In this document: positions 4,182 through 18,897 of the stretch, in pieces
Layout: each line of letters opens with the position of its first letter
Numbering within the stretch: position 1 is the first letter of the stretch
NCBI GenBank assembly: GCA_013204645.1
Contig: JABMSE010000102.1
Coordinates: 1 to 20,669, forward strand
Source of the DNA: Candidatus Saganbacteria bacterium
Lineage (GTDB): Bacteria; Margulisbacteria; WOR-1; O2-12-FULL-45-9
Length of the DNA: 20,669 bases
Direction: 5' to 3'
The notes under the pieces: generated by a model
The model's input: the letters and a program-made list of their open reading frames with translations, nothing else
Databases searched by the model: none
Told to the model about the DNA's origin: nothing
Made by a program: the position numbers and the translations under genes

Positions 4182-4216
4182 GCAAGTTTTCGTCGCCAAA
4201 ACCCGATATATATAGT
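4182..4216 (+). promoter_or_regulatory. Promoter-like motif copy D: GCAAGTT-N15-CGATATATATAGT
   Basis: One of four copies with identical spacing. The others are at 6060, 17553 and 18863. It sits immediately after the asmA stop and 12 nt before the 4228 ATG. Confidence 0.5.
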
Positions 4217-4227
4217 AGGAGAGCAAC

Positions 4228-4491
4228 ATGAGGAACGCGATTGCCATTTTACTCCTAATATTTGCTGTGCTGGCAAGCCCCGGTGCGTTGGCTGGCGAAG
4301 AAACACCCTATGCTTTCCCGATTAAAGAACTCCATGCTGCCCCGCTAGCAGACTCAGCTATCACCTACAACATCCCCGTTGAGGTGAAATTGCTGGATGT
4401 TTCCGGTGATTGGTATAAAGTCAAAATATCCTACGGCATCGGCCCCCTCCAATATAATTATGTAGGGTGGACACACATTCCCCTGCGCTAA
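4228..4491 (+). CDS. Small secreted protein, 87 aa, with a Sec signal peptide. Possible SH3b-like fold.
   Basis: AGGAG ribosome-binding site 6 nt upstream. Signal peptide MRNAIAILLLIFAVLASPGALA|GE. The GDWYKV...GW pattern is reminiscent of bacterial SH3 domains. Confidence 0.6.
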   Translation: MRNAIAILLLIFAVLASPGALAGEETPYAFPIKELHAAPLADSAITYNIPVEVKLLDVSGDWYKVKISYGIGPLQYNYVGWTHIPLR

Positions 4492-4492
4492 C

Positions 4493-4521
4493 TTGCTTCC
4501 CCTCCCCCAACCTGTTATAAT
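4493..4521 (+). promoter_or_regulatory. Sigma-70-type promoter with an extended -10: TTGCTT-N17-TGTTATAAT
   Basis: -35 TTGCTT at 4493-4498. Extended -10 TGTTATAAT at 4513-4521. It lies upstream of the sORF and the SPFH gene. Confidence 0.5.
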
Positions 4522-4556
4522 CTTTTTCAAATCACAACAAAAAGGAGGGGCATTTT

Positions 4557-4721
4557 ATGATATCAAAAGTAATAAAGATTATTATCGGACTGGCTCTAAT
4601 TGGCCTGGGCGCCTGGACAATTTACCTCTGGTGGGGAGATTTATTGACTTTAATTCGAGGAGGAATTGGCCTGGTTTTAATCCTGGCGGGATTAATTACT
4701 TTTGCCCTGGTTGCAGACTAA
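4557..4721 (+). CDS. Small hydrophobic membrane protein, 54 aa, with two predicted transmembrane segments. It is not in the ORF track.
   Basis: ATG with an AAAGGAGGGG ribosome-binding site 7 nt upstream. The translation MISKVIKIIIGLALIGLGAWTIYLWWGDLLTLIRGGIGLVLILAGLITFALVAD is almost entirely hydrophobic. It lies 50 nt upstream of the SPFH gene, a position typical of NfeD-like partners. Confidence 0.6.
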   Translation: MISKVIKIIIGLALIGLGAWTIYLWWGDLLTLIRGGIGLVLILAGLITFALVAD

Positions 4722-4771
4722 CGGGGACCGGCAAAACAAGCTAACAAGCTATTGTTTATTGGGAGGAAACT

Positions 4772-5533
4772 ATGCTTTCTTATGCCTCACCGATTATCCT
4801 TATAATCCTCTATGTTTTCTTTTCCATTAAACAGATTAACCAGTACGAGCGCGGAGTCAAATTTCGGCTGGGAAAATACGTCGGCATAATGGAGCCCGGG
4901 TGGAAAATTGTTTTCCCTCTTTTTGAAGGCTTTAAGCGGGTTGATATCCGAGTTAAGGCGGTGGATGTTCCGGACCAGGAAGCCATGACACGCGACAACG
5001 TTTCGGTACGCATCAATGCGGTAATTTACTACAAAATCAGCCAAGCCGAAAAATCGGTAATTGAAGTTGAAAACTACTACTACGCTATGTCTCAGCTGGC
5101 TCAAACCACTATGCGAAACATCATTGGAGAAGTAACTTTGGATGAGCTTTTGACCCAGCGCGAATTCCTGGCGAATAAAATTCAGCAAATTACTGATAAG
5201 GCATCCGACCCTTGGGGAATCACTGTTAAGGATGTTTCTCTAAAAGATATTATTCTTCCCGAAGAAATGAAGAGGGTAATTGCCAAACAGGCTGAGGCCG
5301 AAAGAGAAAAAAGGGCGGTCATTATAAAAGCTGAAGGAGAGGTTATGGCCTCCCAAAATATGGCACAAGCAGCTAGAACCCTTTCTTCGGCGCATGGAGC
5401 GCTCCACCTTAAAACCTTGCAATCCATAAAGGACCTTAGCTCTGACCAATCAAACACTATCGTTTTCGCGGTTCCCTTAGAGATTTTGCGGGCTTTTGAA
5501 AGATTTGGCCAGACCGAAACTAAGGCAGGTTAA
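4772..5533 (+). CDS. SPFH/band-7 (stomatin/prohibitin-like) membrane protein
   Basis: GGAGG ribosome-binding site. N-terminal transmembrane segment then an SPFH domain (NQYERGVKFRLGKY...TRDNVSVRINAVIYYKI...). The C-terminus has an EAEREKRA coiled-coil segment. Confidence 0.85.
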   Translation: MLSYASPIILIILYVFFSIKQINQYERGVKFRLGKYVGIMEPGWKIVFPLFEGFKRVDIRVKAVDVPDQEAMTRDNVSVRINAVIYYKISQAEKSVIEVENYYYAMSQLAQTTMRNIIGEVTLDELLTQREFLANKIQQITDKASDPWGITVKDVSLKDIILPEEMKRVIAKQAEAEREKRAVIIKAEGEVMASQNMAQAARTLSSAHGALHLKTLQSIKDLSSDQSNTIVFAVPLEILRAFERFGQTETKAG

Positions 5534-5535
5534 CA

Positions 5536-6048
5536 TTGAAAGAAGAACTTAAAAAACTACTAAAATCTACGGGGGCAGTTAAAACTGGTGAGTTTACTCT
5601 TTCTTCTGGCAAAAAAAGCAATTTCTATGTTGACTGCCGAAAAGTAACGCTTCATCCTCAAGGCGCTAAATTAATCGCTAAAATCATCCTAGAAAAAATA
5701 AAGGGGTTAAAAGTTGACGCCATTGGCGGCTTAACCCTGGGCGCAGATCCAATCACGTCTTCAGTTGTTGCCTTAAGCGATATTCCTGGTTTTATTGTGC
5801 GCAAAAAAGCAAAAGAACATGGAACCCAGCAAAGGATTGAAGGAATAATTGAACCAGGCTGGAAGGTGATAATTGTTGAAGATGTTGCCACCACTGGTGC
5901 GTCAGCCCTTCAGGCTATCGAAGCAGTTGAATCCATTGGCGCCAAAGTTATTAAGGTGATTTCCGTAGTCGACCGCCAAGAAGGCGCAGCCCAAACCCTA
6001 AAAGCCTACGACTTTGATCCGATCTGCACAAAGAACGAACTCCTGTAA
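5536..6048 (+). CDS. pyrE: Orotate phosphoribosyltransferase
   Basis: PRTase fold with a PRPP-binding motif (VIIVEDVATTGAS). The N-terminus GEFTLSSGKKSNFYVD is typical of OPRTase. The apparent start is TTG, overlapping the previous stop. Confidence 0.8.
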   Translation: MKEELKKLLKSTGAVKTGEFTLSSGKKSNFYVDCRKVTLHPQGAKLIAKIILEKIKGLKVDAIGGLTLGADPITSSVVALSDIPGFIVRKKAKEHGTQQRIEGIIEPGWKVIIVEDVATTGASALQAIEAVESIGAKVIKVISVVDRQEGAAQTLKAYDFDPICTKNELL

Positions 6049-6059
6049 CCCTTCCGAAT

Positions 6060-6094
6060 GCAAGTTCTGCCCCCTCAAATACGATATATATAGT
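6060..6094 (+). promoter_or_regulatory. Promoter-like motif copy A: GCAAGTT-N15-CGATATATATAGT
   Basis: Same motif and spacing as the other three copies. It sits right after the pyrE stop and about 95 nt upstream of the 313-aa protein start. Confidence 0.5.
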
Positions 6095-17972: not shown

Positions 17973-17995
17973 CTCGCCCTAAGCCGATCCACAAA

Positions 17996-18053
17996 GCGGC
18001 CCTCGATGACCCCTCGACAAAGTCGGGGTAAGCATCGGGGGCTTTTCTTTTGG
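17996..18053 (+). terminator. Conserved nested-hairpin terminator with U-tract CTTTTCTTTT. It is 58/58 identical to 19307-19364.
   Basis: GCGGCCCTCGATGA-CCCCTCGAC-AAA-GTCGGGG-TAAGCATCGGGGG-CTTTTCTTTTGG. An inner hairpin with an AAA loop is nested in an outer helix. Confidence 0.7.
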
Positions 18054-18055
18054 AA

Positions 18056-18083
18056 TTAAATGGGGACAGGTTACTATTTAATT
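18056..18083 (+). repeat. 28-nt repeat R3 (TTAAATGGGGACAGGTTACTATTTAATT)
   Basis: An exact inverted copy lies at 1539-1566. Diverged relatives sharing the GACAGGTT core are at 19371-19394 and, in inverted form, 19493-19516. Confidence 0.7.
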
Positions 18084-18086
18084 TAA

Positions 18087-18108
18087 GGGTGTCGAGATCT
18101 CGACACCC
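18087..18108. repeat. Perfect 22-nt palindrome GGGTGTCGAGA|TCTCGACACCC
   Basis: Seen directly. It contains a central BglII-like AGATCT. It could be a protein-binding site upstream of the ORF6N gene. Confidence 0.6.
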
Positions 18109-18136
18109 CCTGGGGAATTCCATCTCCCCAATGTCC

Positions 18137-18165
18137 TCCGCCTACGGCGGACAATGTCGTTTTTT
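18137..18165 (+). terminator. Weak hairpin plus T-tract (TCCGCC-TAC-GGCGGA...TTTTTT)
   Basis: A 6-bp stem with the T-run 8 nt downstream. This is weak evidence. Confidence 0.25.
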
Positions 18166-18251
18166 AATTGCTTTTATGCCAAAAATTCATAAAATTCGGT
18201 TTTATTGGAATTATTCGCACTCCTGGTAATAACCTTGCTACCCTAGTATGT

Positions 18252-18809
18252 ATGAGCAACTTAATCCCTGTCGAAAGAATAGAAAGCAAGATTTATTTGA
18301 TTCGCGGGCAAAAGGTAATGCTAGACAGAGATCTTGCGAGCTTTTATGGTGTCAAAACAAAAGCATTAAATCAGGCCGTCCAGCGCAACCTAGCCCGATT
18401 TCCAGAAGACTTCATGTTTCAGCTAACGTGGCAAGAAGCCTTCTCTTTAAGGTCACAGTTTGTGACCTTAAACAACCAGCATGATTCACCGCGAAAACCA
18501 AAAGAAACTTCTAAAAGAGGAAAGCATATTAAATACCTACCCTACGTATTTACAGAACTAGGCGGGGCCATGTTGTCCAGTGTTCTACGAAGTCAAAGGG
18601 CCATCGAAATCAATATCATGATCGTGCGAGCATTTGTCCGCCTCAGGGGATTTCTCTCAACCCACAAGAAAATAGCCGAGAAACTAAAAAAACTTGAGAA
18701 AAAGGGCCAAAAGCATGGCGCAGAAATTCAAACAATTTTTAATGTACTTAGAAGGCTTATGTCTCCTTCAGAAAAGCCAGTTAGACACATTGGTTTTCGG
18801 CCTGATTGA
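18252..18809 (+). CDS. ORF6N / KilA-N-like domain DNA-binding protein
   Basis: N-terminus MSNLIPVERIESKIYLIRGQKVMLDRDLASFYGVKTKALNQAVQRNLARFPEDFMFQLT and C-terminus LPYVFTELGGAMLSSVLRSQRAIEINIMIVRAFVRLR both match the ORF6N family pattern. Start chosen at the in-frame ATG at 18252. The ORF track starts at 18168. Confidence 0.7.
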   Translation: MSNLIPVERIESKIYLIRGQKVMLDRDLASFYGVKTKALNQAVQRNLARFPEDFMFQLTWQEAFSLRSQFVTLNNQHDSPRKPKETSKRGKHIKYLPYVFTELGGAMLSSVLRSQRAIEINIMIVRAFVRLRGFLSTHKKIAEKLKKLEKKGQKHGAEIQTIFNVLRRLMSPSEKPVRHIGFRPD

Positions 18810-18862
18810 GCTCTCTAAAGGGGGCACCCCCCATTTGTACAATGAATTTATTCGGGAGGGAT

Positions 18863-18897
18863 GCAAGTTTGGCCCCACTTCTTCCGATAATACATAT
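18863..18897 (+). promoter_or_regulatory. Promoter-like motif copy C: GCAAGTT-N15-CGATAATACATAT
   Basis: Same as copy B, followed by the conserved leader 18898-19031. Confidence 0.5.

Follow-up and report, generated by a model that had tools for sequence, protein, structure and literature searches.

The stretch of DNA analysed here, called the window below, comprises 20,669 nucleotides (nt) of contig JABMSE010000102.1 from a Candidatus Saganbacteria genome. It contains genes such as asmA, pyrE, tuf, lpxB, degT and rseP and carries, in intergenic positions, four copies of the bipartite motif GCAAGTT-N15-CGATA. Saganbacteria are the WOR-1 lineage, placed by GTDB inside Margulisiibacteriota; Saganbacteria and Margulisiibacteria are uncultured sister lineages of Cyanobacteria, and we know of no work on gene regulation in them. 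The four copies start at 4182, 6060, 17553 and 18863, all on the + strand, and all are exact matches, as the original prediction from this DNA had said, including the exact 15-nt spacer. The 13-mers it named are also present, CGATATATATAGT in the first pair of sites and CGATAATACATAT in the second pair. The downstream box had been written as CGATAWA, which describes the first two sites; the other two read CGATAAT.

A chance origin of the four sites is excluded. In 0 of 100 shuffles did the exact pattern reach two or more matches, and when up to two mismatches are allowed the window has five matches (shuffle mean 1.62), of which the additional one, with two mismatches, lies at 14791 (-), inside degT. 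A profile built with nhmmer from 100 metagenome sites (see below), none of them from the window, finds exactly these four sites significant, with E-values of 4e-10, 3.8e-9, 8.8e-4 and 4.9e-5 for sites 1 to 4. Two further candidates were dropped on their profile E-values: 13356-13390 (TGAAATT-N15-CGATAAAAGATAT, E = 5.3), considered as a fifth site, and a match at 6360, internal and with a spacer of 14 nt (E = 0.57). The sites and the features that follow them are listed below (aa, amino acids; UTR, untranslated region).

4180..4216 (+): site 1, predicted promoter; acGCAAGTTTT as -35 box (core 4182-4188), N15, -10 box CGATATATATAGT at 4204-4216
4228..4491 (+): sm87, 87-aa protein with a Sec-type signal peptide; predicted target of site 1
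6058..6094 (+): site 2, predicted promoter; atGCAAGTT (core 6060-6066), N15, CGATATATATAGT at 6082-6094
6190..7089 (+): 299-aa Pro/Arg/Gly-rich orphan protein (HQ596_05065) without a signal peptide; predicted target of site 2
17551..17587 (+): site 3, predicted promoter; atGCAAGTT (core 17553-17559), N15, CGATAATACATAT at 17575-17587
17588..17714 (+): leader A, predicted 5' UTR of the cassette A gene; ~92% identical to leader B
17715..17972 (+): sm85, 85-aa signal-peptide protein (HQ596_05130), an orphan; predicted target of site 3
17996..18072 (+): terminator-like 3' end of cassette A; nested G+C-rich hairpins, then TTTTCTTTT
18861..18897 (+): site 4, predicted promoter; atGCAAGTT (core 18863-18869), N15, CGATAATACATAT at 18885-18897
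18898..19031 (+): leader B, predicted 5' UTR of the cassette B gene
19032..19286 (+): sm84, 84-aa signal-peptide protein, a paralog of sm85 in the signal peptide only; predicted target of site 4
19307..19383 (+): terminator-like 3' end of cassette B; 94-100% identical to 17996-18072

Sites 1 to 3 start 1, 11 and 3 nt past the stop codons of asmA, pyrE and rseP, within the roughly 15 nt that had been predicted for all four; site 4 starts 53 nt past the stop of the ORF6N-domain gene (18807-18809). Transcription from site 1 would start at about 4215-4217. At site 2 the -10 box is followed by GTGTAA, in agreement with the consensus described below, and the predicted leader is ~95 nt long up to the ATG at 6190. 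Sites 3 and 4 form the 5' ends of cassettes A and B, respectively.

Each of the four genes sm87, the 299-aa gene, sm85 and sm84 lies 3' of one site, and NCBI locus tags exist for three window proteins (HQ596_05045, HQ596_05065 and HQ596_05130). The targets had been described as secreted small proteins or a 313-aa protein: signal peptides are indeed found on sm87, sm85 and sm84, and the 313-aa open reading frame (ORF) is the 299-aa protein read from a TTG at 6148. Neither a word-index search of 5.8e9 proteins nor a full HMMER scan covering 1.84e9 representatives gave any match to that protein but itself; the MVPPVPGG… proteins of the related loci L228 and L261 were considered as its kin and show no similarity to it. 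The only window target with relatives is sm87, which carries the motif WYKVKI…GW..IP and belongs to no Pfam family; its AlphaFold2 model, from a 2-sequence alignment, has a mean confidence (pLDDT) of 60, too poor for a fold search. Word-index searches with sm85 and sm87 each matched the query alone.

Sites 3 and 4 are not independent, as they belong to two copies of one cassette of ~520 bp, which consists of the promoter, a leader of ~125 nt, a small gene and a 3' hairpin region. Between the copies the leaders are ~92% identical, the signal-peptide codons are identical, the codons of the mature proteins cannot be aligned, and the 3' hairpins are 94-100% identical. The ORF6N-domain gene (18168-18809) lies between cassettes A and B (block 17540-19400). 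In the related contig L005 (66% identity in FabZ-LpxA) rseP abuts folD, so the segment 17550-19517 (cassette A, ORF6N, cassette B) is a lineage-specific insert, and the block looks like a variable secreted-peptide cassette within a possible mobile island. Leader A can form three small hairpins (GGGGC…GCCCC, CCAUcugcaaAUGG and CCUCGA…UCGGGG); the folding z-scores of the two leaders are just -0.9 to -1.7. Rfam finds nothing known in the leaders or 3' of the sites (window at E up to 1, and 20 motif-bearing contigs), and blastn with the cassette leader and terminator finds no homologs in the metagenome loci.

Conservation and position of the motif across WOR-1/Saganbacteria

The motif is a lineage-wide element of WOR-1/Saganbacteria. 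The FabZ-LpxA fusion protein of the window is 66-78% identical to that of four GTDB contigs, of which three are titled Candidatus Margulisiibacteriota and one, L005, "uncultured bacterium". In one of them, L004 (70% identity in FabZ-LpxA), which was chosen without reference to the motif, the asmA stop overlaps GCAAGTT-N15-CGATATATAGGTA (profile E = 1.3e-5) and an sm87 homolog follows. This arrangement of asmA stop, motif and sm87 homolog, the same as at site 1, is kept in L004, L243, L275 and L236, with sm87 homologs of 31-51% identity. A metagenome scan with the pattern GCAAGTT-N15-CGATATATATA (18 specified bases) matched at least 120 contigs, and 80 loci were fetched, which contain 83 sites. 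The same 18-nt pattern matched once among 2.9 million viral contigs, by chance, in a giant-virus contig of 22% G+C. All loci with NCBI-named proteins are WOR-1 (RIFOXYA12_FULL_43_27, DG_54_3) or Margulisiibacteriota, and the boxes are unchanged in loci that range from 34 to 60% G+C.

Bases that the search pattern did not force are also conserved. At least three of five unforced flank features occur in 72 of the 83 metagenome sites (~85%), and all five in 41; among chance-like viral matches to a 14-nt pattern, used as a control, the figures are 21 of 81 and 0. The extended consensus from 79 distinct metagenome sites is ATGCAAGTTTT-n3-C-n5-AaCc-CGATATATATA-GTGnA, or in shorter form ATGCAAGTTTT…aCcCGATAwwATAGTGnA. 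Its unforced positions, counted over these 79 sites, are A at -2 (63/79), T at -1 (57/79), T at +7 (68/79), T at +8 (61/79), C at +12 (53/79), A at +18 (52/79) and C at +20 (48/79), with C (37/79) or A (27/79) at +21; past TATATATA the first base is G in 50/79, the second T in 66/79, the third G in 46/79 and the fifth A in 53/79. Information is near zero at -20 to -3 and over most of the spacer.

The fixed spacing is seen equally in sites that the pattern did not retrieve. The fetched loci contain 88 further GCAAGTT heptamers, 34 of which have CGA exactly 15 nt 3' (1.4 expected), and nearly all of these 34 have AT before and TT after GCAAGTT. Spacings of 14 and 16 occur in one case each, against 117 sites at 15. 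The downstream boxes of these secondary sites are CGATAATAT, CGAATATATAGTG, CGATAGTAT, CGATTATAT and similar, with mostly T-A-(A/T)-(T/A)-A-T after the CGA. The true -10 consensus is therefore CGA-(T/A)-A-w-w-A-T, and the CGATAAT sites 3 and 4 of the window are thus ordinary members.

In 1.24 Mb of control DNA from other phyla GCAAGTT-N15-CGA occurs three times (2.4 expected), none of them motif-like, and the best profile match has E = 0.39. Two weak matches in a Marinamargulisbacteria contig (L008; E = 0.39 and 4) were rejected, as they lack a -35 box. Within the lineage, at more than 1-3 kb from the retrieval sites, each 100 kb contains 8-10 sites where chance would give 0.19, and this density is inflated by clustering around the retrieved sites; contigs L002-L005, which were not selected by the motif, have ~3 sites per 100 kb. 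Densities of ~3-10 sites per 100 kb imply tens to a couple of hundred sites in a genome of 1.7-2.5 Mb. The small regulon of the original prediction is, in the light of these densities and of the 120 or more matching contigs, not small.

The motif also has a consistent relation to genes, which were called in the loci as crude ORFs. Of 114 sites 95 fall between genes, although the DNA of the loci is 88% coding. The first gene downstream of a site is on the same strand in 79 cases and on the opposite strand in 5, and the median distance from motif end to ORF start is 52 nt. The upstream gene lies on the other strand in 25 of 88 cases, so the element belongs to the downstream gene and not to the 3' end of the upstream one. 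The bias toward gene starts that had been proposed as a check is present in the metagenome contigs by both counts, intergenic position and co-orientation. The motif is accordingly real, conserved across the lineage, intergenic, oriented with respect to genes and fixed in its spacing.

These data also bear on whether the motif could be a dispersed repeat or mobile element, or could belong to the 3' end of the upstream gene as a terminator or 3'-UTR element, and play no part in initiation. Three of the four window sites start 1-11 nt past a stop codon, sites 3 and 4 lie within a duplicated cassette, and other dispersed hairpin repeats are present in the window, all of which could fit such an origin. 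However, dispersed repeats such as miniature inverted-repeat transposable elements or repetitive extragenic palindromic (REP) elements are conserved contiguously and show no gene orientation, and here, with flanks and spacer unconserved, the two boxes are all that could make up a repeat unit. The sites share no hairpin, the same boxes are retained over the whole G+C range of the loci, and the opposite-strand upstream genes and the co-orientation downstream speak against a 3'-end element. This explanation is already largely refuted, and we regard it as extremely improbable; on its position and conservation the motif is a putative promoter, not a dispersed repeat.

Candidate readers of the motif

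We consider it likely that the four sites are promoters read by RNA polymerase with a dedicated alternative sigma factor, of the sigma-70 family, of WOR-1/Saganbacteria. In the mechanism we propose, sigma region 4 would recognise the -35 box, whose consensus is ATGCAAGTTTT, and regions 2 and 3 would bind the CGA-type -10 box aCcCGATAwwAT, whose CGA is placed exactly 15 nt past GCAAGTT. Transcription would start ~10-12 nt past the C of the CGA; a conserved GTG(G/T)AAG lies 11 nt past this C and is compatible with a predicted start there. Promoters of the sigma-28 class, discussed below, have their start ~7-8 nt past the -10 element. In the window the promoter would drive a conserved periplasmic small protein (sm87), the orphan 299-aa protein and the two variable small-secreted-peptide cassettes, and in the lineage as a whole it may drive from tens to a few hundred genes, most of them orphans, which would each have been inserted together with a promoter between housekeeping operons. 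That a sigma factor reads the motif, which one it may be, and where transcription starts are inferences.

Among known classes the architecture is closest to that of FliA/sigma-28 (group 3). The sigma-28 consensus is TAAAGTTT-n11-GCCGATAA, equivalent to TAAA-N15-GCCGATAA (PMC2859248). Compared with the E. coli consensus, the motif agrees in 6 of 8 positions of the -35 box (GCAAGTTT against TAAAGTTT, sharing AAGTTT) and in 7 of 8 of the -10 box (cCCGATA(A/T) against GCCGATAA), a total of 13 of 16, and the CGA is invariant and in a fixed place. Like the promoters of FliA, SigD and WhiG, the motif is bipartite and rigidly spaced, has a CGA core with C before and TAA or TAT after it, lacks a TATAAT/TTGACA pair and stands directly 5' of individual genes. 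Unlike them, its -35 box begins with GC (preceded by AT) in place of TA, its boxes are separated by N12 and not N11, and its conservation extends to ATGCAAGTTTT and to CGATAwwATAGTGnA. The resemblance to FliA/SigD-class promoters that had been predicted is thus supported by AAGTTT and C-CGATA(A/T) and weakened by GC for TA and by the spacer longer by 1 nt; it is a likeness and not proof of membership. Also, the regulon appears much larger than the sigma-28 regulon of E. coli (PMC4183435) and consists of orphans, with 0 clear flagellar, motility or chemotaxis genes among 82; regulons of the sigma-28 class contain late genes of these kinds (flagellin, flgM, flgKL, motAB, che, MCPs).

As the most likely reader we tentatively put forward a FliA-family sigma factor that has changed its -35 preference and is no longer tied to flagella. 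Chlamydial sigma-28, which acts at late promoters such as that of hctB and reportedly tolerates spacers of 11-12 nt, is a FliA-family sigma factor in an organism without flagella. The chlamydial case is similar in its sigma-28-type promoter, non-flagellar context and lineage-specific genes, and differs in having few targets, against tens to hundreds here, and in belonging to an unrelated lineage.

Several observations weigh against a dedicated sigma factor of this kind. Positions 1 and 2 of the -35 box are invariantly GC, where sigma-28 has TA, and in the form GCAAGTTT-N12-cCCGATAw the 12 nt between the 8-mers are rigid, 1 nt above the E. coli consensus. For E. coli sigma-28, a T1-to-C change lowers the activity of the aer promoter ~10-fold (PMC2859248), so the reader cannot have an E. 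coli-like -35 specificity. A tblastn search of 459 kb of motif-bearing contigs with E. coli FliA found no sigma gene, and the window contains no sigma-70-family gene. No flagellar or chemotaxis gene is found among the 82 downstream genes, bar a weak FliK-like domain. In addition, most metagenome sites were retrieved by the pattern itself, so that their core boxes are forced; free of this bias are L004, the controls and the 34 secondary sites, as well as the flanks of the retrieved sites and their placement and strand.

The reader might instead be a dedicated sigma factor of the extracytoplasmic function (ECF, group 4) type, a reading that we judge unlikely. In this case TGCAAGTTT would stand for a GGAAC/TGAAAC -35 box and CGATAT for a CGT-type -10 box, much as in the HrpL-dependent hrp box. 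The shape of the motif, TGnAAnnTTT, ~17 nt and then CG(A/T)nnn, allows this. Staron et al. in 2009 reportedly described strictly fixed spacing and very high information as typical of ECF promoters, and both are seen here; the targets, non-flagellar and lineage-specific, are also more ECF- or HrpL-like than FliA-like. The hrp box of Pseudomonas syringae, GGAACC-N15/16-CCACNNA, marks type III effector genes. Like it, the motif is a high-information, rigid two-box promoter before many unrelated, poorly conserved and scattered genes, and it could serve as a genome-wide regulon predictor. However, ECF promoters have AAC at -35 and CGT at -10, 16-17 nt apart, and the motif has invariant AAG and CGA, 17 nt apart; CGA stands where most have CGT, and there is no CCAC. 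Agreement is 13/16 with sigma-28 against ~9/15 with SigW-type boxes of B. subtilis. These AAG and CGA boxes lower the case for identity with an ECF promoter, not that for an ECF-like way of working. ECF sigma factors are usually autoregulated, yet no protein with sigma-70 region 2 or 4 could be assigned downstream of ~114 sites, and no sigma/anti-sigma operon or secretion system was seen nearby. Two Sigma70_r4 matches in a pooled scan are not assignable to proteins, and two of the same set matched HTH_3.

Much less probable still, in our view very unlikely, is that ATGCAAGTTTT is the site of an activator that replaces the -35 box, as in class II activation at pho boxes or the rhizobial tts box, with TATAGT or GATAAT as a housekeeping -10 box. 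TATAGT, the form of sites 1 and 2 and of most metagenome sites, and GATAAT, that of sites 3 and 4, each match TATAAT in 5 of 6 positions, and the 11-nt conserved upstream box is long for a contact with sigma region 4. The invariant part of the downstream box, however, is CGA at a fixed distance and not a TATAAT-like hexamer. The best such hexamer is at +27 in CGATATATATAGT and at +23 in CGATAATAT and is absent in CGATAGTATC; an activator with the housekeeping sigma factor is unlikely because this hexamer changes register and the CGA does not. The upstream box is neither a palindrome nor a direct repeat, unlike most activator sites. True housekeeping promoters of the window have a TGn-extended -10 box, which the sites lack. 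A scan for sigma-70 promoters (TTGACA and TATAAT 16-18 nt apart, or TGnTATAAT) lists 0 of the 4 sites, and conventional boxes are found elsewhere:

2343-2351: asmA promoter, TGcTATACT
7241-7270: tRNA-Thr promoter, TTGTCC-N18-TATACT with upstream TG
7378-7383 and 7403-7408: tuf promoter, TTGACA and TATAAT with a 19-nt spacer
14460-14468: degT promoter, TGtTATAAT

These boxes, set against the invariant CGA of the motif, bear out the earlier statement that it does not resemble the sigma-70 promoter of tuf.

With a dedicated alternative sigma factor as the preferred reader, we rate the motif as a putative lineage-specific and unusually information-rich class of alternative-sigma promoters that would control a large set of orphan genes. 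The searchable literature yielded no description of the motif, of Saganbacteria transcription or of Saganbacteria/Margulisiibacteria sigma factors. One preprint lists Margulisbacteria among the phyla where a sigma-70-based promoter predictor most often gives incomplete lists, a remark that is at best compatible with our finding. A near-invariant promoter of ~30 nt in genomes of 34-60% G+C offers a computational handle on a large co-regulated set, including orphan and giant proteins beyond the reach of homology annotation. It leads to the prediction of one conserved alternative sigma factor with matching changes in regions 2 and 4. The motif could also provide a ready-made strong and specific promoter for future genetics and a marker for assigning metagenome contigs to the lineage. 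If the reader is a FliA homolog working without flagella, it would be an independent parallel to chlamydial sigma-28.

Genes downstream of the motif in related genomes

The regulon had been expected to consist of exported small proteins. Signal-peptide-like N-termini are found in only 6 of 82 downstream proteins in relatives; most of these proteins are orphans and some exceed 2,000 aa, which does not support that expectation. Very few match any Pfam family: Transglut_core (3), GGDEF (2), HTH_3 of XRE type (2) and SocA (2), with single cases of PAD_porph, LysM and TIG. The neighbouring genes are ordinary housekeeping genes, for example mfd, dnaE, ftsH, surA, mazG, mreBCD and PBP2. The regulon genes stand singly, each with its own promoter, between housekeeping operons, and the arrangement in the window is the same.

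Twelve of the downstream proteins form a family with the shared N-terminus M-x-(D/E)-P-x-I-N-Q-I-N-N-I-P-Q-I-D-x-T-S-D-I-A-G-G-A-A-V, with members of up to 2,065 and 2,169 aa; another motif target exceeds 3,715 aa. Members of this giant family occur in L229, L231, L232, L251, L266, L276, L279 and others (for example L232:5581-11775), have no signal peptide and contain repeated 'MRNLVHQEMTGIGG' helical units. Close to their genes stand clusters of ~100-aa orphan genes, every one of which has a copy of the promoter to itself. The transglutaminase core belongs to three members of the pooled downstream set, which were not identified individually.

A broader reading, speculative and to our mind rather improbable, is that the motif marks the main accessory transcription programme of WOR-1/Saganbacteria. 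In this reading a flagella-uncoupled, FliA-derived or ECF-like sigma factor would control ~100 orphan genes per genome, and the products would be effectors or surface factors that are exported as part of an unrecognised lifestyle in association with hosts or prey. The targets considered for such a programme mostly lack Sec signals and have unusual conserved N-termini, and some are giants, 2,000 to more than 3,700 aa long, in which transglutaminase-like and FliK-like modules occur as well as GGDEF and arginine-deiminase modules. If this were true, the promoter would be a genome-wide predictor of effectors, as the hrp box is in Pseudomonas syringae.

Pfam scans of 56 downstream and 10 secondary-site proteins found no flagellar family above threshold. 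The FliK-like exception is a motif-driven protein of 428 aa in WOR-1 DG_54_3 (L223:10867-12150), whose N-terminal half is rich in Pro and Thr and whose C-terminal domain is FliK/T3S4-like, with a match to Pfam Flg_hook (E = 1.3e-4) that falls below the threshold (22 bits against a cut-off of 29.8); its UniRef name is hook-length-control-like protein. It was set aside as a flagellar link, its neighbours being mreBCD, PBP2 and L25 and not flagellar genes, and it is only a hint of a link to type III-like export. CheR was matched twice in a pooled scan of the neighbouring genes. Flagellin and FlgV are known from some Margulisbacteria (PMC7018530, PMC11607428).

Short words recur in the predicted leaders of the lineage (L202-L281 and the window). 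GCCTGTT is present in 15 of 115 leaders against 1.3 expected, and TGCCTGT in 13. In addition, GCCATCTGCA(AA) is present in 7-8 leaders, among them the two of the window, in which it folds into the hairpin CCAUcugcaaAUGG, and tandem (T)ATCAG(A/G)G units lie directly 5' of the Shine-Dalgarno sequences of giant-protein genes. Such words may be binding sites of a post-transcriptional regulator; they have no Rfam match.

Other features of the window

L005, with a gap of 56 nt between lpxB and degT, lacks the 1.2-kb segment that separates these genes in the window (13255-14480). The segment contains two ORFs without Pfam matches, one at 14038-14436 and the other, Arg/Ser-rich and preceded by a good Shine-Dalgarno sequence, at 13405-13968. 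A single 426-aa ORF (10836-12116) encodes a fusion of FabZ and LpxA, and the same fusion is found in matches from many phyla.

Several repeats are also present. A 68-nt repeat, 91% identical between its copies at 144-211 and 7166-7233 (see also 7105-7135), is built around the hairpin CCCCTTCTCTT-tcta-AGAGAAGGGG. Upstream of tRNA-Thr there is one copy, and L205 and L232 have similar hairpins, CCTCTCTT…AAGAGAGG, directly 5' of motif promoters. These hairpins are probably the usual terminators of the lineage or a REP-like element. A palindromic element, GTGCAAGAATTTGATATTTTTTC … GAAAAAAAATAAATTCTTGCAC, is found at the window start (1-113, +) and between dxr and a 161-aa ORF (1440-1520, -), and a 31-nt piece of it matches L279. 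The short repeat AAATGGGGACAGGTTACTATTTAAT occurs at 18053-18078 (+), after cassette A, and at 1537-1562 (-).

The segment 8643-8760 was considered as a gammaproteobacterial rimP leader (Rfam, 40 against 47 bits) and is really the terminator hairpin of tuf, AAAAAGCCCCGTTTCTTCGGGGTTTTTT. The mechanical start of the VanW ORF at 8637 is therefore too far upstream, and the true start is probably near the methionine of MKTFLKLIG…. At the contig end (20618-20668) at least three tandem 13-nt units, GGTGACTGACACC, which are partly palindromic, lie at or upstream of the mnmE start.

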